Shown one piece after another: positions 5,141-64,000 of a stretch of 64,000 bases of DNA. The stretch lies in IMG/VR virus record IMGVR_UViG_3300045988_076131, positions 1 through 64,000 of that record. One strand, 5' to 3'. The notes under the pieces were generated by a model that was not told the DNA's origin, ran no database searches, and saw nothing but the letters and a program-made list of their open reading frames with translations. The stretch comes from a virus. The translations under genes and the position numbers were made by a program. The number at the start of each line of letters is the position of its first letter. The stretch's first letter is position 1.

Positions 5141-5826
5141 TTACCGATAATGTAGAACAAAAAAGTATCGCCTGGTACCGCTCCCGCTTCGGAAATTTTA
5201 CAGGTTCCGAAGTTCACAATCTTATGAAGTCGGGTCGCAAGAAGGATGAGGTGTGGTCCGAAACGGCAAAGAGCTATATGTACAAGGTCGCCGCCGAGCG
5301 CATGTTCAACCCCGACTTCCTCAACGACGATGATGTGTTTGACGATTATCTCCATCAGACGAACTTCACCTCCAAGGCTATGCAGTTCGGCATTGAGCAG
5401 GAGCAGTACGCCCGAGAGACATACATCAAGCTCAACAACGATGTCGAGGTGTTTGAGGTTGCATCCTGCAAGCACGATACCATACCTCACTTCGCAGCCT
5501 CGCCCGACGGCATCGTAAGAGGTGCGGACTTGAAGTGCCTGGAAATCAAGTGCCCGAACATCGCAACACACATGATGTATGTGGATAAGATACACGACGG
5601 CGCATCACTGAAAGAAGTCAAGCCCGAATACTATTGGCAGACAATGGCAGAGATGGCTTGCACCGGCGCAACGGAAACGGACTTTGTTTCCTATTCGCCG
5701 TGGCTTCTGAACCCCATACACATCGTAAACATTCCACGCAACGACGAGGACATCGCGCTGCTTGAAGAGCGCGTGAAGCTCGCGAACGCTTTCGTGGAAG
5801 AAGTTATCAATAAGTCAAAATCCTAA
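5137..5826 (+). CDS. YqaJ-type (lambda-exonuclease fold) recombination exonuclease
   Basis: 229 aa; WYRSRFGNFTGSEVHNLM, SPDG, LEIKCP motifs typical of YqaJ PD-(D/E)XK nucleases. Confidence 0.8.
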   Translation: MITDNVEQKSIAWYRSRFGNFTGSEVHNLMKSGRKKDEVWSETAKSYMYKVAAERMFNPDFLNDDDVFDDYLHQTNFTSKAMQFGIEQEQYARETYIKLNNDVEVFEVASCKHDTIPHFAASPDGIVRGADLKCLEIKCPNIATHMMYVDKIHDGASLKEVKPEYYWQTMAEMACTGATETDFVSYSPWLLNPIHIVNIPRNDEDIALLEERVKLANAFVEEVINKSKS

Positions 5827-9408: not shown

Positions 9409-9573
9409 ATGGAGAGTGAGATTTACTACATCAACATGGATGGCAATATCTACTTCAAGGTTGAAGATGGTGTTGTCTGTTCGCAAGGCAAGCAGACCAG
9501 TGTATCGCCCGACAAGCTCTCCGACTTCCTTGCAATAGCAAAGGAGTTAGGGTTTAGAACCGGGAAGCTATGA
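9409..9573 (+). CDS. small hypothetical ORF (54 aa)
   Basis: MESEIYYINMDGNIYFKVEDGVVCSQGKQTSVSPDKLSDFLAIAKELGFRTGKL; ATGA overlap with the next ORF. Confidence 0.4.
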   Translation: MESEIYYINMDGNIYFKVEDGVVCSQGKQTSVSPDKLSDFLAIAKELGFRTGKL

Positions 9574-9754
9574 AAGCCGTACTGACATTAGACAATGGGA
9601 GAAAGATTGCCGCAGACATTTTGCCCCCCCCGATTGGAAACTCCGCAGACCACGCTTTCAAGACGAATACGAACGTTGGTTTGTAGAGGAGTTTAACAAG
9701 GCGCAGCCACACCTGATTCATAAGGTGGTGAAGGCGCACATATTAAGACACTAA
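9570..9754 (+). pseudogene. 61-codon ORF broken at a C8 tract (9624-9631) as assembled
   Basis: MKAVLTLDNGRKIAADILPPP then, with one extra C, DWKLRRPRFQDEYERWFVEEFNKAQPHLIHKVVKAHILRH; the downstream frame is protein-like. Confidence 0.45.
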
Positions 9755-47400: not shown

Positions 47401-50251
47401 TAACGACACTATTAATGACTATCAGAAGTCGGCTAAAGACTGGCAAGAAACGATAGACAACATCAAACGTTCGCCCAAAAATTTCTTCACTGGTGCTTAT
47501 CTCGATATTGGCAACGCAGAGAGATGGGGAAAACAGTACGTTGATAGTCACACTGTATTTACTAAAGAACTTGCGTTAAAATATGCCGAAAAACAAAAGC
47601 AAGCTGCACTGTATTGGAATGGACTCCTTGGAGGCAAAGACCCGTTTGCAAAAAAGAGTAATTCCAAAGCTCAACGTGACATTCTTCAGGAGCGCATATC
47701 ACTCCTGAAAGACATGAACGCCAAGTACAACGAGCTTATCAAGATTGAAAGCAAAGAGCGAGCTTTAACAGACACACGCAAGTACTTCAAGGAGGCAGCA
47801 CAAAATGTTGGATGGAACGCCAACGATATTCTCCCCGACGACAAATCTATTGCCAAGCGTATTCGAGAAATCGGCAATCAGTACAAGGATGTGGGTAAGC
47901 GTGGCAATGCACTCCGTATTGCAGCAGACATCGACTTGAACATATCTAAAACGGAGTACGACAAGCTTAAAGATGATATTTCTCGCAATATCGAAGACGC
48001 GTTCTCGCAGTTGCAGCTATACAAAAAACTCAAAGATGAGGGATTGTCAGACACGCTCATCAAAAACATGTTCGGCGATATTACCACATCATTTGAGAGC
48101 GTCCGCGAAAGTATTGACGACGAGTTTAACAAGTATATCTTCAAAGATTACGAGAGCAAATACGGTGGCGACATCAACAAATGGAGTGAGAATATCGTCA
48201 ATCAGTACAACAAGGATATTAGCAACACGGCGAATGTCCTCAAGGAGCGATTTGGCGACAGTGACATCTACAAGCAGTATCTTGACCGAGTACAAAAGCT
48301 CGACAAGCAGGTTTATCAAGACCAAGTAGAGCAAACACAGGAGTTAATCAAGGCATACAAGCAGCAGCTTTCCGACAAGTTGCAATTGGATAAGTGGTAC
48401 ATTGAGGAAAAGCAGAAAATCCAAAACAATGCGAATATTGCCAAGAATCCTGAGTTACAAAAGCAGTTGCAGGAGAATTTGACTGCCCAATACAAGAAAA
48501 AGACTGGCGAGAACACTTGGAAGAATTTCCAAGGCTCTGATATGTATGTTAAGATTTTCGAGAACCTCGACCATACATCCACCAAGGTACTCGACTATAT
48601 GATACAGAGGCTACAATCCTTGCGTGAAGAAATGAAGAACCTCGACCCTACACAAGTCAAGGCTATCACGGAGCAGATTAGCAAATTGCAGGAAACTCGA
48701 AATTCAAGAAATCCTTTCAAGGCTTTCACAAGTGGACTGAAGGAGTTGGTAAAGTACACTAAGGAATACAAGAAACTCGGTGGAGACAATGCTTTAATCT
48801 CCACAAGCGACAAGTACGACAAAGAAGAAAAGAATATAGAGAATCAAGGTAAGATTATCGCCAACTTGGATGCTGAATACAACAAGTCTATGTTGCTTAA
48901 CGGATTGGACGATGAGAAGACCATGACGTTGAAAACCAATCTTGATTTGTCGAAGAACCTACTCGACAATATGAAGAAGCAGCACAGTGAGACAAAAGGC
49001 ACTCTTGATACACTTAACAATGTTCAAGGCGAGACCGACAATGCTAAGAATAAGTTTAGCAAGTCCGTAACAGATATTACCTCTATTGTTTCATCTATGG
49101 CAACAGCATTCAATGGATTGTTTGATGTTTTGGGCGGTTCAGATGAACAACTCGAAAACACTCTTAGTGTCGTTGACAATATCGGTCAAGCAATCGGTTC
49201 GTACTATAGCGGAAACTATGCAGGTGTCGTATCGGGCGCAATGGGCGCGCTTACAGGCGTAGCTAAACTCTTTAGCAACGAAGGAAAGATTGATAAGGAA
49301 ATTGCACGCCAAGAACGCGCTGTAAATTCCTTGCAACACGCTTACGAAAAGCTTAAAAAGAGTATGGACGATGCCTTTGATACACAAAGGCTCTACGAAT
49401 ATAACAAAAAATCGGTCGATGCCCTTAAAAAGCAGCAGAAGGCGTACCAAGCAATGATTAATGCAGAGCGCGGTCGCAAGAAGCCCGATGAAGGTAAGAT
49501 TCAAGAATGGGAACAACAGATTGATGATTTGAACACAACCATCCAAGAATTAGGCGAATCTATGACAGAAGCACTTGGCGGTTTTGGTTCTCAATCTAAC
49601 TATAAATCTGCTGCTGAAGCTTTCTCGGAAGCGTGGGTAGATGCTTTCAATGAAGGTAGTGATGCACTCGAAGCACTCAATAATAAGTTTGACGAGTATT
49701 TCAATACAATGCTCACCAAGCAGTTAATGAATAGAGCTACTTCAAAATACATTCAGCCTATCCTTGAAGCATTCGATAAAGCGGTATCTGAGGGCAGCGA
49801 AGGTGGAAACAATGGTCTTGACGTTACCAAGAAAGAACTCGAAGGTATCAAGGAACTGAAAGACAAGAACCTTGCATTATTCAATGAGTATGCAAAGAAC
49901 TTGATGGATGTTCTCAACGTCAAGCCTACTGGCAGTTCAAATATCTCTGCTTTGCAGCAAGGTATTCAGTCTGTAACTGAATCAACCGCACAGGCGTTGG
50001 AGAGTCTGCTTAATTCCATGAGGTATTATTTGGCAACCCAACAGGCTGATGTGCGGATAATCCGTGATACACTGATTGAACGGCTCGGAGCGTCGGTCGG
50101 TGCAGTCTTGCAGGATGCGAACAATAACCCTGTATTGGTAGAGTTGCGCTTACAAACGACACTGCTCACTGATATTCGAGATACGTTATCAAGCTGTGTA
50201 AAGTCGGGCCACTCGCAGGGCAACAAGGGCATAAAGGTGTTTATGAACTAA
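44492..50251 (+). CDS. tape measure protein
   Basis: 1919 aa, highly helical, follows the G/GT chaperones. Confidence 0.85.
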   Translation: MGNSALGAALSIPKSALDAIKEADQKLKDIQSTAKNTAAGVTKSFKNMAVGTQPFLDALDKVIAKLNTINTSATSASSSLSNIGASAGSMSGNITQASQNIQQMVAQLSNMKGAGTSSIMQAVFAFRRLQEATKGASGMNIAELKKEIGAIDSILKDTNYNLTKADQDSLIKRKKTLQDELKYQQQMCEERVIAFQKALDKMSSAEASFNAKQRKAYSDRSKGYQEKNHKQNTSYKGALDFSAAANTLNRQARAIEYLKEARMKLSQTDADYKQKLETLNAAIARHTQNLKEAGVSSRNLAEQTSYMSGYISRWAQRMTFAFSINTVQGFVEQIAAVRGQFELSQRSLEAILQNKPKADEIFNKTVELAVKSPFRIKDLVDYTRQLSAYRIESDKLYDTTKRLADVSAGLGVDMGRLILAYGQVKAAAYLRGSEVRQFTEAGVNMYGELQSYFKEVKGEAYTTAQIVDMISKRKVTFEDVEAIFKRMTDKGGIFYNMQEIQAETLQGKISNLKDAFDVMLNDIGKSNEGFFKGSIQFATNLLNHWEAIANVAKALLSIVVAIKVNSMFMQSNLGKAFILNAAMVGRWRAFLNLIESMPTAFGKMKTAISAIGGSLKAALGGFAFYAILQTIMNYRNALQQFDGTIRKARESTIDALGKISELSAKYKDFSNVIYRTQNNVDDSKAIEEKRKALNKLIEQANRDGLEIKINVTELNETQLDKEFETLKKRYRDFVFELEAIKERAAQSDKSGWWWGVSGIKEGLDEYKTAAIDIISQTNKIEKAMALANIGYKDANIQTQKYFDTLRNGRIDGEADIDYLKRMHDAWKGLEDYYSRNSMVLPDWLVKGQGYMKGVSDGFDDLSSAIKQTEENFKDVFVGKGGIEEFKKRYQKDPIKLKVEIDQYAAENSLSDTQKRLLYEIAAKKYGIKFPVEVDDSDTEPAIKTIIEDLQEYADKNKIKISVEVKDPKNLNDTINDYQKSAKDWQETIDNIKRSPKNFFTGAYLDIGNAERWGKQYVDSHTVFTKELALKYAEKQKQAALYWNGLLGGKDPFAKKSNSKAQRDILQERISLLKDMNAKYNELIKIESKERALTDTRKYFKEAAQNVGWNANDILPDDKSIAKRIREIGNQYKDVGKRGNALRIAADIDLNISKTEYDKLKDDISRNIEDAFSQLQLYKKLKDEGLSDTLIKNMFGDITTSFESVRESIDDEFNKYIFKDYESKYGGDINKWSENIVNQYNKDISNTANVLKERFGDSDIYKQYLDRVQKLDKQVYQDQVEQTQELIKAYKQQLSDKLQLDKWYIEEKQKIQNNANIAKNPELQKQLQENLTAQYKKKTGENTWKNFQGSDMYVKIFENLDHTSTKVLDYMIQRLQSLREEMKNLDPTQVKAITEQISKLQETRNSRNPFKAFTSGLKELVKYTKEYKKLGGDNALISTSDKYDKEEKNIENQGKIIANLDAEYNKSMLLNGLDDEKTMTLKTNLDLSKNLLDNMKKQHSETKGTLDTLNNVQGETDNAKNKFSKSVTDITSIVSSMATAFNGLFDVLGGSDEQLENTLSVVDNIGQAIGSYYSGNYAGVVSGAMGALTGVAKLFSNEGKIDKEIARQERAVNSLQHAYEKLKKSMDDAFDTQRLYEYNKKSVDALKKQQKAYQAMINAERGRKKPDEGKIQEWEQQIDDLNTTIQELGESMTEALGGFGSQSNYKSAAEAFSEAWVDAFNEGSDALEALNNKFDEYFNTMLTKQLMNRATSKYIQPILEAFDKAVSEGSEGGNNGLDVTKKELEGIKELKDKNLALFNEYAKNLMDVLNVKPTGSSNISALQQGIQSVTESTAQALESLLNSMRYYLATQQADVRIIRDTLIERLGASVGAVLQDANNNPVLVELRLQTTLLTDIRDTLSSCVKSGHSQGNKGIKVFMN

Positions 50252-50380: not shown

Positions 50381-50977
50381 ATGAGAAATAGAATTATTAC
50401 AGCGATTATGGTAACATTTGCCTTTTTTGCGCTATCATGCACACAGAAACAACAGAAAGTAACCACCCATAAACCGACACCATCCACAAAGCAGGTTTTT
50501 CTAAACAAAACAAAGGATGCGCTTAAAAATTTTGTAAAAGACAAAGCAAACAATCCCGATGCTATGAAGATTAGCGGGATGAAAGTGGCGTTTCTTTGTG
50601 ATAGCGCTTGTGCTTTAAACTTTCGTTTCGTTGCAGAAAACAAACTCGGAGGGCATGTTAACGGAAAGGCTCAATTTATACTATTAGAATATCAAGACGA
50701 ATACTATTGGTCGTGGCAAGACGACAAAGACGATTCACCTCACTGTATTGGAGACTGGCTGGGGAATTTTGGCGCATTTTTTGCGGCAACTTTGCATTTG
50801 GAATTTAAAGACACTGACGCTTTTGTAAAATCTAAATGCCCCAAAGATAGTAGTGACTGTGCAAGCATCACCATGGAAGATGAGTATGTACAAGCATATT
50901 GTATAACAAAGAAGTTTGGCGAAAAGGCAGATATGACACCTTCTACTTCGTGTGATCATACAATTCCAGTACAATAG
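50381..50977 (+). CDS. lipoprotein (moron-like)
   Basis: 198 aa; signal peptide plus lipobox MRNRIITAIMVTFAFFALSC; own promoter-like box; hairpin 50985-51018 downstream. Confidence 0.7.
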   Translation: MRNRIITAIMVTFAFFALSCTQKQQKVTTHKPTPSTKQVFLNKTKDALKNFVKDKANNPDAMKISGMKVAFLCDSACALNFRFVAENKLGGHVNGKAQFILLEYQDEYYWSWQDDKDDSPHCIGDWLGNFGAFFAATLHLEFKDTDAFVKSKCPKDSSDCASITMEDEYVQAYCITKKFGEKADMTPSTSCDHTIPVQ

Positions 50978-51088
50978 CCATACCATTAGCCGCCACGCCT
51001 TTGTGCATGGTGGCTAATATTGTTCTTGTCTTATCGTTGGGGGGGTAATATTCCCCCAAATCTTATTTATATCACTATCAGTTCTCAT
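50943..51088 (-). pseudogene. cassette UJ, frame broken at C7 (plus-strand G7 51039-51045); needs +1
   Basis: MRTDSDINKIWGNITPP then NDKTRTILATMHKGVAANGMAIVLELYDHTK; the 3' end overlaps the lipoprotein gene end and a hairpin. Confidence 0.45.
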
Positions 51089-51216
51089 AAAACTCAATTA
51101 TATACGTTACACTATTATTCCCTCCTCCCTTATAGAGGGTGGCGCACATGCAAACGGCTTTGCTTTGCCCCCCTAATCTGTTTGGATATATTTTCCACTT
51201 GGTGTGTTGCTGTCAT
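51078..51216 (-). pseudogene. cassette UI, frame broken at G6 (51168-51173); needs -1 or +2
   Basis: MTATHQVENISKQIRG then QSKAVCMCATLYKGGGNNSVTYIIEFYEN. Confidence 0.5.
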
Positions 51217-51355
51217 AATTCGTAGATTGTTAAAACGTGCGGTAAACCATAGGAGTTGGTTCTGTGTGCTATCTCTGTCGTAAGACAGTTGTATTTACCC
51301 CCCCCCTCACTACTGATACAGGCTTTTTGTAGCCTTGGATAATCAGAATGTTCAT
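51213..51355 (-). pseudogene. cassette UH, frame broken at G9 (51298-51306); needs +1
   Basis: MNILIIQGYKKPVSVVRGGG then KYNCLTTEIAHRTNSYGLPHVLTIYEL. Confidence 0.5.
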
Positions 51356-51507
51356 ATCTCTTTCAATTCTAAAACAAATGGACGTAAATCAAAACCTCCC
51401 AAGCCGTGAGCGTAAAATGCAGTCAGCGTGCCTGTTTTTGCTCTGGGGGGGGTATGAATAACTATTGACTTATACAAAGTCGGATAAAAAACTATTCTAT
51501 TTTCCAT
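51352..51507 (-). CDS. cassette UG (51 aa, intact; C8 tract in frame)
   Basis: MENRIVFYPTLYKSIVIHTPPRAKTGTLTAFYAHGLGGFDLRPFVLELKEI. Confidence 0.55.
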   Translation of the reverse strand: MENRIVFYPTLYKSIVIHTPPRAKTGTLTAFYAHGLGGFDLRPFVLELKEI

Positions 51508-51641
51508 AAAGCTCTAATATTGCCGGTCTGATATTATAGTTCGGATCTATGCCTTTATAGTCGTTTGCCTTTATCGGCTGGCATTTACCCCCCCCCATAT
51601 ATAGACCTTGGCTTAAAATGGTCAAGTATATACTTCCTCAT
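51497..51641 (-). pseudogene. cassette UF, frame broken at G9 (51588-51596); needs -1 or +2
   Basis: MRKYILDHFKPRSIYGGG then KCQPIKANDYKGIDPNYNIRPAILELYGK. Confidence 0.5.
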
Positions 51642-51821
51642 ACACCTCTAACAAATAATTGATTTGCCCCCCCGCATAACAGAACTCGTTTTGAAATCGG
51701 GGCGGCACGAAAAAGCCATAAGATTGTGCCTTGTGCCGTATTTTCGTTCACCGCAAGCGTATTGCCCCCACACCTTTCTTCCAAGCTCAGTGCGGTACTG
51801 ATTAAGTATTTTACTTCTCAT
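51622..51821 (-). pseudogene. cassette UE, frame broken at G7 (51667-51673); needs +1
   Basis: MRSKILNQYRTELGRKVWGQYACGERKYGTRHNLMAFSCRPDFKTSSVMRGG then QINYLLEVYEEVYT. Confidence 0.5.
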
Positions 51822-51964
51822 ACAGTTCTAAGATTTTCATCACACTTCTATCATAACTACCGGTTAAAAGGCAAATACCCCCCGAATATGGAGTAAAACC
51901 GATGTTGTTGATGTGCGGTGTTCCCCCATTCGGAATTTCCGTTAAGTTGACTGATTTTCTTCAT
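51811..51964 (-). pseudogene. cassette UD, frame broken at G6 (51878-51883); needs -1 or +2
   Basis: MKKISQLNGNSEWGNTAHQQHRFYSIFGG then ICLLTGSYDRSVMKILELYEK. Confidence 0.5.
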
Positions 51965-52106
51965 ACATTTCAAATAATAAATTATCTTTCGCCGCAGAGG
52001 TGAGAGAGGATGATTTTTGTCCTCTAAGTTCAATTCTCTGTTCGTGTGGTGAATTGTACCAATCATCAATAGAACGTCCTCTAACGGCAATCACATTACT
52101 TCTCAT
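51942..52106 (-). CDS. cassette UC (54 aa, intact, no long tract)
   Basis: MRSNVIAVRGRSIDDWYNSPHEQRIELRGQKSSSLTSAAKDNLLFEMYEENQST; the RGR...EQRxE...LTS..KDN pattern is seen in variable regions of phage C5-MTases. Confidence 0.6.
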   Translation of the reverse strand: MRSNVIAVRGRSIDDWYNSPHEQRIELRGQKSSSLTSAAKDNLLFEMYEENQST

Positions 52107-52227
52107 ACGTTTCTAAAACACAATCGCATTGCGAGTTATTGCCTGCCCCATGTGCGCCAACACATAAAGCCGAGCCTTTGTGCGACTCAACAATATCTCC
52201 CTTGCGACTAATCTTTATCTTTCTCAT
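52096..52227 (-). CDS. cassette UB (43 aa, intact, no long tract)
   Basis: MRKIKISRKGDIVESHKGSALCVGAHGAGNNSQCDCVLETYEK. Confidence 0.55.
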   Translation of the reverse strand: MRKIKISRKGDIVESHKGSALCVGAHGAGNNSQCDCVLETYEK

Positions 52228-52332
52228 ACACTACAAACACATACCCCCCCCGATGTGCGGTCTGCAAGCATTGGTGTTTGACGGACTTATACCTTGCCTT
52301 GTTACAGCAACTCCGTGTAATCTATTTTTCAT
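52208..52332 (-). pseudogene. cassette UA, frame broken at G8 (52244-52251); needs +1
   Basis: MKNRLHGVAVTRQGISPSNTNACRPHIGGG then YVFVVYEKDKD. Confidence 0.5.
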
Positions 52333-52468
52333 AAATCTCAACAATTCCTGTATGCTGCCTATGTCCTGGAACGTACCACCAACCTATGTATCTTGCGTTT
52401 AACGCAGTGGATTTGGTGGTGGGGGGGGTGATACCACTCCCCATATTAAACGCTCTTGTCGTTCTCAT
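52322..52468 (-). CDS. cassette U0 (48 aa, intact; C8 tract in frame), start overlaps the MTase 3' end
   Basis: MRTTRAFNMGSGITPPTTKSTALNARYIGWWYVPGHRQHTGIVEIYEK. Confidence 0.55.
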   Translation of the reverse strand: MRTTRAFNMGSGITPPTTKSTALNARYIGWWYVPGHRQHTGIVEIYEK

Positions 52469-53678
52469 TATACAAGCCTTCAAGTCTTTGTTTTTCTAAA
52501 CCAAAGCTAAACTCCGCCAATTCACGCTTTTCTTCACCTGTAAGCGCATTAAACTCGTCAGAGGTACAAATATACTCAAACAACTCTTTAACGCTTACCT
52601 GTGGCTCTAAAAGATAGTCTTTGAGTTTTCTTTTATCTGTCCTTGCCATTAACTGCGCTACCGTTTCGTCTTTCAGGTAGTATTTCTCACCTGCCTCTTC
52701 TTGGAGAATATCCTTAATAACGATACCTCGGTCTTCCGGCTGCGGAATATCCACTTCAAGCGGAGGCCATGCAAACGGGTCGCTTTCATCATAAAACAAG
52801 CCTTCTCCTGCGACTGGCTTTGTCTTGATATTAGTCCAATAGATACGTCGTCTGTTCTGTGCCGATACAAGCGCAGAGTTAATATGAATACCACGCACAC
52901 CGATAGCGTGAGAAAGACATCTTTCCCACTTTTCAAGCATCTTGACGTTTTCAAGAAAGAAATAAATATCGGGATTGTACTTACGCAGCTCCGTAAGTAT
53001 TCGCATATATTCCCAAAAGAGATAGGACTGACCTTCAAACTGAAAGCCTTGTGACTTTAATTCGAGATAGCGTTCGAGGGTGTAAATTTCCTCGCCACTC
53101 TTTGTACTCATGCCTTTCATCTTTCCGCTAAAAGAAAACGATTGGCACGGAGAACCTCCGATTAAGATGTCGGGCACCCCGTATTTTTCAACTATCTCGT
53201 CTATATTCAAATCCGTAACGCTACCCAACTGGATAGTATTCGGAAAGTTGTGCATCGTGTTCGCAATAGCGTGCTTATCAATCTCCGATGCAAGATAAGT
53301 CGTTATGTTAGCACCGATGCCGCGTAACGAAACTTGTCCCCCTGAAATTCCGTCAAACAAAGACAAGACCTTGAGGTTGTTCAACTTGATTTTAGGAATG
53401 AAACTGAAAATATGCTTGATAGTTTCAATGTTCCAGCCGTTGCCAAGCCCTTTGTACTGCTGCGTTTCGCTTGTAACAAACTCGTAATCGTGCGGCATAG
53501 TCTGCAACTCGGCACACTCTTGCGGTGTCAGTCGTCTGATAGCTGCCACATATTTTACTCCATTTGCCTCAAACTCTACGCCCTGCTTATTATCGGGCAT
53601 GCGCTCCTGAAATTCCTTCAGTTGCTTTTCTTTTACCTTGCGGTAAACATCCCTTGCGATTACTTCTTTATTCTCCAT
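52446..53678 (-). CDS. DNA cytosine-5 methyltransferase, circularly permuted motif order (IX-X then I-VIII)
   Basis: 410 aa; RRLTPQECAELQTMPHDY (IX), YKGLGNGWNIETIKHIF (X), VLSLFDGISGG (I), ASEIDKHA, GGSPCQSFSFSG (IV), FLENVKML (VI), SAQNRRRIYW (VIII). Confidence 0.85.
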   Translation of the reverse strand: MENKEVIARDVYRKVKEKQLKEFQERMPDNKQGVEFEANGVKYVAAIRRLTPQECAELQTMPHDYEFVTSETQQYKGLGNGWNIETIKHIFSFIPKIKLNNLKVLSLFDGISGGQVSLRGIGANITTYLASEIDKHAIANTMHNFPNTIQLGSVTDLNIDEIVEKYGVPDILIGGSPCQSFSFSGKMKGMSTKSGEEIYTLERYLELKSQGFQFEGQSYLFWEYMRILTELRKYNPDIYFFLENVKMLEKWERCLSHAIGVRGIHINSALVSAQNRRRIYWTNIKTKPVAGEGLFYDESDPFAWPPLEVDIPQPEDRGIVIKDILQEEAGEKYYLKDETVAQLMARTDKRKLKDYLLEPQVSVKELFEYICTSDEFNALTGEEKRELAEFSFGLEKQRLEGLYNENDKSV

Positions 53679-53865
53679 GTATCTCCAAAATTAAATTATC
53701 TTGTGTAGAAGTACTTATTGTTCCGCATCTTTTGTCGGGTCGGCATGAGTACGAGCGCATGTTGGAGCGGTTGCACCACTCGCTCCTCGTACCACTATCG
53801 TACATTTTTCGGTATGCTCAGCCCAACTCGTTGCGGTATTTGTTCAGTATGACTATTTGCGCCAT
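53668..53865 (-). pseudogene. cassette U-1 upstream of the MTase, with an in-frame TGA (53818-53820)
   Basis: MAQIVILNKYRNELG*AYRKMYDSGTRSEWCNRSNMRSYSCRPDKRCGTISTSTQDNLILEIHGE; shares ILNxYRxELG and SCRPD with UE; its end overlaps the MTase ATG with the same junction design. Confidence 0.45.
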
Positions 53866-63395: not shown

Positions 63396-63699
63396 AAAAA
63401 TAAAAAAAATAAAAAATTAAGGGAAAGGGTGGGTGCGGTGGGTGCGGTGGGTGCCTGGGGGGGTGGGGGTTTAACCCCTGCGGATGGCGAAGGCTCAAAA
63501 AGCAAAGAGTATAAAGCACGTAACACGCTGATACATAACTACTTACAGGCTCTATAAATACTATTTTTTACATACAAGACGGACGTATTACACGAAAAAG
63601 GCGAAAAAGGCGAAAAAGGTATTATATTTATATATACTATTAGATATATAGATATAATATATATAAATATATAATATATAGCTAATAATATATATATAC
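63396..63699. other. origin-like repeat region: A-run, G-rich iterons, A-tract repeats, AT-rich block
   Basis: GGTGGGTGC x3 plus G7/G5 runs (63421-63470); GCGAAAAAG x3 (63592-63619); about 80 bp of >90% A+T (63620-63699). Confidence 0.4.
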
Positions 63700-63727
63700 G
63701 CACGCGCGAGGAGCTGCACCTACACCA

Positions 63728-64000
63728 CTACGCCACGCCGAACTTTTTCGCCTCGTCGTGCCTGCCTGCCTTCCACTCCTGCTCCTGCCTTCTCTCTTCC
63801 CCCCTATATCCCCCCCCCACGGTGCGCAGCCTCGCCGCCGTTGTGCGCTCTGGATGCAGCGCCGTGCACCACTCGCCGCCTCGCTTTCCGTCGATCATTA
63901 GGCACGCCCGCCGCCCTTCCGTGCTGCCATCTGTAAAATGTTCTTTCAGGCGCGCGAGGCGTTCGGCTATTTTGCGCCGTTCTGCCGCTTTCTTTCGTGC
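63728..64000 (-). CDS. 3' end of an ORF entering from beyond the window (uncertain)
   Basis: open minus-strand frame ...KEHFTDGSTEGRRACLMIDGKRGGEWCTALHPERTTAA...AKKFGVA*; GC-rich; contains C9 (63810-63818) and C6 (63799-63804) tracts, so the frame is unreliable. Confidence 0.3.
   Translation of the reverse strand, partial: ARKKAAERRKIAERLARLKEHFTDGSTEGRRACLMIDGKRGGEWCTALHPERTTAARLRTVGGGYRGEERRQEQEWKAGRHDEAKKFGVA

Follow-up and report, generated by a model that had tools for sequence, protein, structure and literature searches.

We have analysed a 64,000-nt stretch of viral DNA (IMG/VR record IMGVR_UViG_3300045988_076131; the whole stretch is referred to below as the window) in which a C5 DNA methyltransferase gene on the minus strand is accompanied by an array of short open reading frames (ORFs), or cassettes, most of which carry a homopolymeric run of G or C. 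The locus probably encodes a split, multispecific phage C5 methyltransferase, whose separate recognition minigenes are toggled independently by poly-G/C contingency tracts via slipped-strand mispairing. Our evidence is comparative throughout and was drawn from consensus assemblies. At this level, the sequences demonstrate the anatomy of the locus, the identity of the cassettes as target-recognition domain (TRD) modules, tract-length polymorphism between otherwise identical sequences together with its consequences for the reading frame, and purifying selection.

Homopolymeric tracts and reading frames in the array

Twelve TRD-like cassettes are present at the locus, one upstream of the methyltransferase (U-1) and eleven downstream (U0 and UA to UJ, 41-67 aa each). 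The array lies on the minus strand and has a G+C content of ~41%. The features are as follows.

53668..53865, minus strand: U-1, upstream TRD cassette, UE-like, MAQIVILNKYRNELG*AYRKMYDSG...QDNLILEIHGE* (asterisks, stop codons), from sequence comparison
52446..53678, minus strand: catalytic subunit, a circularly permuted C5 DNA methyltransferase of 410 aa, from its ORF, motifs and Pfam PF00145
53338..53342, minus strand: G5 run in motif I of the methyltransferase (GGGGGA, encodes SGGQ), in frame, from the sequence compared with relatives
52322..52468, minus strand: U0 minigene, 48 aa, C8 at 52421-52428 (TPP), in frame, its ATG inside the methyltransferase's last codons
52208..52332, minus strand: UA minigene, G8 at 52244-52251, out of frame (+1 or -2), from translation and cassette parse
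52096..52227, minus strand: UB minigene, 43 aa, intact and tract-free, from ORF and cassette parse
51942..52106, minus strand: UC minigene, 54 aa, intact and tract-free, homologous to the AMRGR...CLTT.QKDNLI TRD module of fused relatives
51811..51964, minus strand: UD minigene, G6 at 51878-51883, out of frame (-1 or +2), from translation and cassette parse
51622..51821, minus strand: UE minigene, G7 at 51667-51673, out of frame (+1), from translation and cassette parse
51497..51641, minus strand: UF minigene, G9 at 51588-51596, out of frame (-1 or +2), from translation and cassette parse
51352..51507, minus strand: UG minigene, 51 aa, C8 at 51445-51452 (TPP), in frame, from ORF and cassette parse
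51213..51355, minus strand: UH minigene, G9 at 51298-51306, out of frame (+1 or -2), from translation and cassette parse
51078..51216, minus strand: UI minigene, G6 at 51168-51173, out of frame (-1 or +2), from translation and cassette parse
50943..51088, minus strand: UJ minigene, the last, C7 at 51039-51045, out of frame (+1), from translation and cassette parse

The 64-kb window contains 13 G/C runs of at least 6 nt, nine of which fall within the 1.4-kb array, one per cassette; at the density of the rest of the window (4 runs in 62.6 kb), ~0.09 would be expected per 1.4 kb. On both strands of the window the sequence GGGGGG was counted 33 times, compared with 7.4 +/- 3.2 in dinucleotide shuffles, and none of 100 dinucleotide-preserving shuffles reached 33. 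A first-pass annotation, made from the sequence alone, had listed nine tracts with a frame state for each cassette. The coordinates and lengths all match the window sequence, and the frame states were reproduced row by row by three-frame translation and a cassette parser, which placed 2 tract-bearing cassettes in frame (U0 and UG, C8 each) and 7 out of frame. To restore the frame, UA (G8), UE (G7), UH (G9) and UJ (C7) need +1 (or -2), and UD (G6), UF (G9) and UI (G6) need -1 (or +2); UB and UC are intact and lack tracts. As the same annotation had proposed, the shifted frame reaches the conserved cassette end in each of the seven broken cassettes: beyond the tract it is open until an h-h-E-h-Y-E-K-type sequence that overlaps the next ATG. 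By three-frame translation, the correct frame is free of stop codons downstream of every tract of the window.

We observed that the modules do not lie in tandem in one polypeptide between motifs VIII and IX: each has an ORF to itself, from an ATG to a stop, and the ATG of each cassette falls within the final codons of the ORF before it. The typical junction is ..L-E-L-Y-E-K-stop (cTGT-ATG-AGA-AGT-AA), and that of the first cassette, at the end of the methyltransferase, is ..G-L-Y-N-E-N.. (TGT-ATA-ATG-AGA-ACG). Because the embedded starts overlap the preceding ends, successive ORFs lie in different frames; since most junctions read ATGA, both of the non-ATG frames end there and the ATG frame goes on. 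Junctions of this sequence would reset the frame, and appear suited to termination and re-initiation. A scan for sigma-70 promoters, which is ill-suited to Bacteroidota, returned 9 sites with 9 expected and was uninformative.

The upstream cassette is interrupted in the window by an in-frame TGA at 53818-53820 (codon 16), and its own stop overlaps the methyltransferase ATG. Relatives of the locus are designated here by L numbers and homologous proteins by P numbers. Codon 16 is CGA, and the cassette intact, in L002, L008, L015, L086 and L087, and is TGA in L012 and L093; in L006, U-1 carries a G9 tract and is out of frame.

At the distal end of the array, the C7 tract of UJ and a G5 run 8 nt upstream of it (TGGGGGAATATTACCCCCCCAA, coding strand) form an imperfect inverted repeat of ~10 bp at window positions 51037-51059. 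This repeat was flagged by a terminator scan on the opposite strand, and might influence slippage.

Tract lengths and frame states among related arrays

We fetched 17 permuted-type loci from IMG/VR, one Prevotella metagenome-assembled genome (MAG; L080) and 27 arrays from metagenomes. With the window included, 45 arrays were parsed, of which 7 were exact duplicates, leaving 38 unique arrays; frames were assigned by a tract-centred classification and checked by eye. The minigene architecture was present in 38 of the 38 unique permuted-type arrays. Comparison of tract lengths across related genomes, which the first-pass annotation had suggested as a check, showed that lengths differ among these homologous arrays and also between the window and a near-identical contig.

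In genomes that are 96-99% identical in the methyltransferase, orthologous tracts with identical 18-nt flanks were found at different lengths: C8/C8/C7/C9 for U0, G8/G6/G6/G6 for UA, G6/G7/G9 for UD, G7/G8/G5 for UE, C8/C8/C7/C7/C7 for UG and G6/G6/G6/G7/G9 for UI. When identical flanks of 30+30 nt were required and all arrays were compared, 44 of 58 tract pairs differed in length, by up to 3 nt, compared with 10 of 105 pairs for A/T runs of at least 6 nt in the same contigs. Among the five closest genomes, array G/C runs of at least 7 nt differed in 16 of 18 comparisons, and A/T runs of 5-6 nt in the flanks in 0 of 49. The proposal that the array has the pattern of slipped-strand contingency loci is supported by these observations, the tracts varying between genomes with identical flanks while A/T runs are stable.

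The same cassette can be found in frame in one genome and out of frame in another. Orthologues of U0 with identical flanks carry C8, C7 or C9, and those of UA carry G6 (L015, in frame), G7, G8 (L088, in frame) or G9; the UB position has G7-G10 in L080, L092, L093 and L110. UD orthologues have G7, G9 or, in frame in L106, G8. UE is in frame with G8 in L002 and with G5 in L015, and out of frame with G9 in L087 and L088. UG orthologues have C7, C8 or C10, and those of UI range from G6 to G9, with in-frame copies in L091 (G6), L093 (G8), L105 (G8) and L110 (G8); UJ is in frame, with C8, in L001.

The contig L166 (ENA ERZ28575677) encodes an identical methyltransferase and differs from the window over ~7.2 kb by only three changes: two substitutions in the tape-measure gene, and a UF tract of G8, in frame, in place of the G9 of the window. 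At the remaining eight tracts, of which six are out of frame, the two sequences agree in length. Byte-identical arrays, out-of-frame tracts included, were present in four separately deposited assembly records (L006, L099, L101 and L102), and four further exact array pairs were found among those parsed. Such identity between separate records indicates that assembly noise is low and that the out-of-frame states are real, although the state recorded for any single tract may be that of the population majority.

The two substitutions in L166 (window positions 49669 and 49693) and the CGA-to-TGA change in U-1 are all transitions at CpG. They would fit deamination of 5-methylcytosine but, as only three events, are no more than suggestive.

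Altogether, 99 tract-bearing cassettes were classified: 31 were in frame, 62 were out of frame by an offset that could be measured (one offset in 30, the other in 32), and six terminal ones were also out. The numbers of tracts with lengths from 6 to 10 nt were 21, 30, 31, 15 and 2, respectively. At length 8, 21 cassettes were in frame and 10 out, whereas at lengths 6, 7, 9 and 10 together the corresponding numbers were 10 and 58. On the coding strand 73 tracts consist of G and 26 of C; none consists of A or T, despite a G+C content of ~41%.

Identity of the cassettes and selection on them

Relatives at ~50-60% identity are canonical, non-permuted C5 methyltransferases in which 2-4 homologous modules are fused between motifs VIII and IX; they are encoded on ~90-kb phage contigs (L018-L060) and in the cultured Prevotella sp. 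oral taxon 376 (L081/L082). UJ, which of all the cassettes most resembles a TRD module of these fused enzymes, is 57% identical over 28 aa to residues 347-374 of L039, just before motif IX, and UI, UC, UD and UH also align to modules of the fused relatives. In six other homologues (P0031, P0042, P0047, P0060, P0085 and P0103), a permuted enzyme has one cassette fused in frame at its N-terminus, in P0031 a UE-like one, giving the order TRD-IX-X-I..VIII. Because they are homologous to modules fused inside the methyltransferases of relatives, the cassettes are established, at the level of sequence, as TRD modules, all of them free-standing ORFs in this phage. Their earlier designation as specificity modules thus agrees with the fused relatives.

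An alignment of the eleven repaired cassettes placed the tract-encoded GGG or TPP in the same columns in 7 of the 9 tract cassettes; these columns lie 0-3 residues ahead of a conserved Lys, with which the recognition core K-x-x-x-[LIM]-x-[AT] begins. The residues at the equivalent position in fused relatives are ordinary (NIRSIDDKAHTLLAT vs NITPPNDKTRTILAT). With UG as query, the only matches among 1.84 billion representative proteins were free-standing ORFs of 57-88 aa, apart from spurious translations of repeats. When the eleven repaired cassettes were joined into one query, nothing in a collection of 5.8 billion proteins matched at E <= 0.001, an artificial concatenate of short modules being a poor query; an un-permuted construct (I-VIII + UJ + IX-X) aligned with PDB sequences in its catalytic motifs only and not in the TRD.

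In post-tract segments of six cassette families, the ratio of nonsynonymous to synonymous changes (pN/pS) was 0.11-0.33 at pS of ~0.4-0.65, with no difference for pairs whose two copies are both out of frame. Values in this range indicate that the cassettes are not pseudogenes. They also bear out the claim that the tract is the only lesion in each broken cassette, in that purifying selection acts on the coding sequence beyond it in out-of-frame copies as well. Most genomes have a C tract (TPP) in the UG family, and L003, L014, L090 and L091 have a G7-G9 tract (GGG) at the same site; selection would seem to have kept the tract as such, whichever base it consists of.

One clade of relatives (L004/L007/L013, 73-76% identity) shares the minigene array but has hardly any tracts in it. 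In L007, whose array we read most closely, most cassettes are single intact ORFs from embedded ATG to stop, without homopolymers. These intact cassettes validate the repaired reading of the window cassettes, and the clade as a whole indicates that the tracts are derived and lineage-specific. The first-pass annotation had named homologous arrays without tracts as a finding that would count against its proposal; those of this clade are largely tract-free and, as read in L007, mostly in frame.

A sister lineage (L062, L113-L117, L120 and L164; ~60% identity) has a split enzyme that is not permuted, with an alpha gene containing motifs I-VIII followed by TRD minigenes and then by a beta gene containing a TRD and motifs IX-X. 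These minigenes have C/G tracts of 6-11 nt, mostly 8-11 (seven tracts in L117), and their start codons also overlap the preceding end. Close relatives of the window array differ from one another by gains and losses of whole cassettes, and two chimeric cassettes were observed: one in L088 near 5285, where the N-part of UF is joined to the C-part of UI exactly at the G tract, and one in L086 (4632-4778), where the N-part of UE is joined to the C-part of UI. Tracts and junctions may also act as points of recombination or deletion.

At the junction of the upstream cassette with the methyltransferase, the fused P0031 reads ..LEMFEK-MNKK.. and the unfused L004 reads ..LEMYEKYE* overlapping MKNMNK... 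The EK/MNK junction in L004 is encoded by an A-rich stretch, and a toggle by a 1-nt indel might occur there, as judged from the protein sequences only.

The catalytic subunit

The 410-aa ORF contains all of the C5 methyltransferase motifs sought, I, IV (PCQ), VI (ENV), VIII (QxRxR), IX and X (GNG/GNS), in the order IX-X (RRLTPQECAELQ and GLGNGWN), I (LFDGISGGQ), IV (GGSPCQSFS), VI (ENV) and VIII (QNRRR). Motifs IX-X are thus ahead of motif I, with RRLTPQECAELQ and GLGNGWN at residues 48-83 and LFDGISGGQ at 106-114. The match to Pfam PF00145 (E 1e-38) covers residues 102-250 and only positions 1-116 of the profile. Motif VIII is followed by a conserved pre-TRD stretch (DIPQPEDRG..KDIL..KYYL) and a helical C-terminal extension; by motif reading and by comparison with the fused relatives, the 410-aa protein has no TRD core of its own. 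Matches of the core to PDB sequences and folds are of the DNMT3 and HhaI class. An AlphaFold2 model of the close homologue P0060, built with 41 homologues, has a confident catalytic core with helical N- and C-terminal extensions, and Foldseek matches to it were confined to that core.

Among relatives, the length of the motif-I G run varies too. The run is in frame as G6 in L001, L002, L086 and L092 and as G7 in L087 and L093, and it frameshifts the whole methyltransferase as G7 in L008 and as G8 in L012 and L080; on this sequence pattern, it could be a master switch of the enzyme in some relatives. The L014 methyltransferase is frameshifted near 5710 by (TTTC)3, compared with (TTTC)2 in L003. 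In this family the catalytic gene is disrupted unusually often.

Alternative explanations

There is next to no chance, in our judgement, that the cassettes are all really in frame at one fixed length and were broken by homopolymer errors in sequencing or assembly. A single tract in a single assembly may be miscalled, and the window and L166 do differ at one tract. However, eight of nine lengths, six of them out of frame, recur in L166, and four separately deposited records share identical out-of-frame arrays; length differences reach 3-4 nt while A/T runs are stable in the same contigs, many of which come from high-coverage short-read assemblies (NODE_..._cov_ names, up to ~290x), and error would be unable to create the tracts themselves. 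Decay, by which the cassettes would be remnants of a once-fused multispecific enzyme and the tracts mutation-prone sites without function, has a very slim chance of being correct. It would accommodate the out-of-frame majority (two thirds) of the tract-bearing cassettes, the nonsense codon of U-1 in the window and the disrupted methyltransferases of several relatives, but not the low pN/pS of pairs that include out-of-frame ones, nor correct frames free of stop codons after every window tract. Also, decay does not predict runs of G/C only, never of A/T, at ~41% G+C, at the same structural position and kept through swaps between C and G, nor an architecture kept across 38 arrays and a second lineage. 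As read from these sequences, the architecture is truly that of a contingency locus, and not a product of assembly error or decay.

A somewhat better, but still slim, chance attaches to the array being a store of silent cassettes, from which recombination at junctions or tracts would move spares into an expressed slot such as U-1, the tracts being incidental. The gains and losses of whole cassettes between close relatives, the chimeras in L088 (joined at the G tract) and L086, and the homologues with one module fused at the N-terminus would all fit such a store. Yet every cassette, in two diverged lineages and at different codon positions, has its own start overlapping the previous end, which silent copies would not need; all cassettes are in direct orientation, such that the methyltransferase would be lost if one of them recombined with the upstream slot of its own molecule; the 38 arrays whose tracts and frames were parsed showed neither a second copy of the methyltransferase nor a cassette that had been transposed; and one tract per cassette is left unexplained. 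Slippage during decoding, of RNA polymerase or ribosome on the G/C runs, would yield some in-frame product at any length and make length nearly neutral. We consider it unlikely as the basis of the tracts, although it agrees with the in-frame fraction of ~1/3, the two out-of-frame offsets being equally common, with purifying selection equally strong on out-of-frame copies, and with sister-lineage tracts that reach 9-11 nt. GGG-G and CCC-C are, moreover, known shift-prone sequences, which also favours such slippage. It accounts less well for the over-representation among in-frame copies of length 8, at which most families are in frame, and for a distribution centred on 7-8, from which the exact length still appears to matter, and the presence of in-frame states together with a need for shifts in both directions leaves no single programmed direction; length change at the DNA level is, in addition, directly seen. 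Slippage in decoding and switching of the DNA are compatible, and the former may add to the latter.

Two narrower possibilities were also considered. Programmed frameshifting in one fixed direction is ruled out by shifts both ways and by in-frame states, and read-through fusion of cassettes to the methyltransferase is unlikely given the conservation of a start codon at each junction.

Several observations weigh against independent switching of recognition minigenes, or limit its scope. The in-frame fraction equals the random 1/3 that neutral drift of tracts would also give, and one clade of arrays (L004/L007/L013) works without tracts. The identity of the arrays in the L006 group means that switching is not fast enough for the consensus to differ in every sample. 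The methyltransferases of L016, L017, L106 and L108 are frameshifted at other sites, without a G/C tract, and disruption at such sites in several relatives indicates that some loss of function is ordinary mutation. Public gene calls are blank across the array (4234-5700 in L166 and 4234-5508 in L167, 1.3-1.5 kb), and minigene loci are invisible in present annotation. Finally, in the AlphaFold2 model of P0060, a natural N-terminal fusion, the module has a predicted local distance difference test score (pLDDT) of only ~52; with this low score and Foldseek matches to the core alone, structure says nothing on how modules dock.

Proposed mechanism and implications

A working model can be outlined for tract-switched minigenes. 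One gene (52446-53678, minus strand) would make a permuted catalytic subunit without a recognition core. The array would probably be read by coupled termination and re-initiation, since a start codon is embedded in the end of each preceding gene. Each module would then bind the catalytic subunit non-covalently and steer methylation to its own DNA motif, for which split C5 methyltransferases such as M.AquI, and multispecific Bacillus-phage enzymes with their tandem TRDs, would be natural precedents. Nine of the eleven downstream modules have a tract of 6-9 nt just upstream of the recognition core, and in some relatives the catalytic gene has a tract too; slipped-strand mispairing in phage DNA replication would alter tract length and thereby bring each module independently into frame, in most cases at length 8, or take it out. 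Progeny would thereby carry different subsets of active modules and hence different methylation patterns. Many modules may also compete for one catalytic subunit, a competition that switching would relieve.

The role of the phage methyltransferase is most likely anti-restriction. Depending on the host, methylation would protect against methylation-sensitive restriction and harm the phage in the face of methylation-dependent (Type IV) restriction, so that bet-hedging is a likely outcome of variable patterns. The host is probably Prevotella, on the basis of one MAG and of more distant matches to Bacteroides and Phocaeicola phages. Switching within populations and its rate, translation of the minigenes, their assembly in trans and a selective benefit are the parts of this model that we infer. 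The complete picture, in which one catalytic subunit is programmed by a dozen trans-acting mini-proteins of ~50 aa, each switched independently by its tract, for combinatorial bet-hedging, is offered tentatively, as a little short of an even bet.

If this picture is true, one progeny burst would sample many of 2^9 or more methylation patterns, and gut phages would diversify the methylation of their own DNA stochastically, module by module, which bears on phages facing hosts with both methylation-sensitive and methylation-dependent restriction. A recognition domain of ~50 aa could also then be supplied to a C5 methyltransferase as a separate subunit, which would be useful for programmable cytosine methylation. 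Tracts of this kind should not be 'polished away' as homopolymer errors.

Other G/C runs in the window

The only other long G/C run in a likely coding region of the window is C8 at 9624-9631 (PPP), on the plus strand, in a 38-aa ORF (MKAVLTLDNGRKIAADILPPP..., 9570-9686). Past this run a second frame is open for ~40 codons (DWKLRRPRFQDEYERWFVEEFNK...), and the ORF may be another frame-switchable small gene. The window's other G/C runs lie in a non-coding segment, 63400-63820, which contains A-rich runs, three GGGTGCGGT-like repeats, G7, G5 and GCGAAAAAG repeats, then a long AT-rich block of TATATA type, and then C6 and C9 runs; an origin, a packaging site or an attachment region are possibilities for this segment.

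Comparison with known systems

Phase variation by slippery repeats is known in bacteria, and multispecific methyltransferases are known as a phage counter-defence; the locus described here joins both in modular form. A full-text literature search turned up no account of minigenes that encode TRDs, nor of homopolymers that switch single modules.

Multispecific C5 methyltransferases of Bacillus phages (M.SPRI, M.Phi3TI, M.Rho11sI and M.H2I) were reportedly the work of the Trautner laboratory. Each has one core and several independent TRD modules of ~40-50 aa, one specificity per module, and the enzymes are presumed to protect the phage from several restriction enzymes of its hosts. Like them, the system here is phage-encoded and uses one core for several short TRD modules, and the fused relatives (L018-L060 and L081) share their exact tandem layout. 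Unlike them, it has modules that are separate minigenes, a catalytic protein that is permuted and, in most modules, a poly-G/C frame tract.

The first-pass annotation had likened the array to the 'phasevarions' of Type III mod genes (Haemophilus, Neisseria and Helicobacter), which are described, together with Type I hsdM/hsdS genes bearing simple sequence repeats (SSRs), in PMC7383803 and in a review (PMC11868660). The likeness holds for the pattern of phase-variable tracts: a coding repeat slips and toggles the frame, lengths differ between close genomes, and the coding potential downstream is kept. It does not hold in the strict sense of a host regulon under a switching methyltransferase, since the enzyme here belongs to a phage. 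The SSR-bearing enzymes are host-encoded N6-adenine methyltransferases with one repeat per gene, which switch a whole enzyme or S subunit and regulate host genes, whereas the phage C5 enzyme has up to nine or more independent tracts, one per specificity module, and implies no regulon.

Natural split or permuted C5 methyltransferases include M.AquI alpha/beta, M.BssHII, M.Alw26I, M2.Eco31I and M.Esp3I (PMC5944983). As in the natural permuted enzymes, motifs IX-X here are ahead of I-VIII, and the order in the N-terminal fusions is that of M.BssHII (PMC5944983); the sister lineage (L062, L117) is arranged like M.AquI, with alpha containing I-VIII and beta containing a TRD and IX-X. The gene layout of the window would fit an M.AquI-type split in that its catalytic ORF stops short of a TRD core; the structural model of a fused module is of low confidence. 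Known permuted enzymes keep their TRD covalently attached, mostly in the type H arrangement, whereas the TRDs here are free minigenes; known split enzymes have two subunits and one specificity, in contrast to a battery of alternative TRD-only subunits.

A further resemblance is to the Type I hsdS shufflons and inverting specificity genes of Mycoplasma, Streptococcus pneumoniae and Bacteroides (PMC9881135), which likewise obtain combinatorial specificities by stochastic TRD switching in one locus. In the hsdS systems this is brought about by site-specific inversion of half-genes, whereas in the phage locus complete modules would be switched in and out of frame, independently of each other, by homopolymer slippage.

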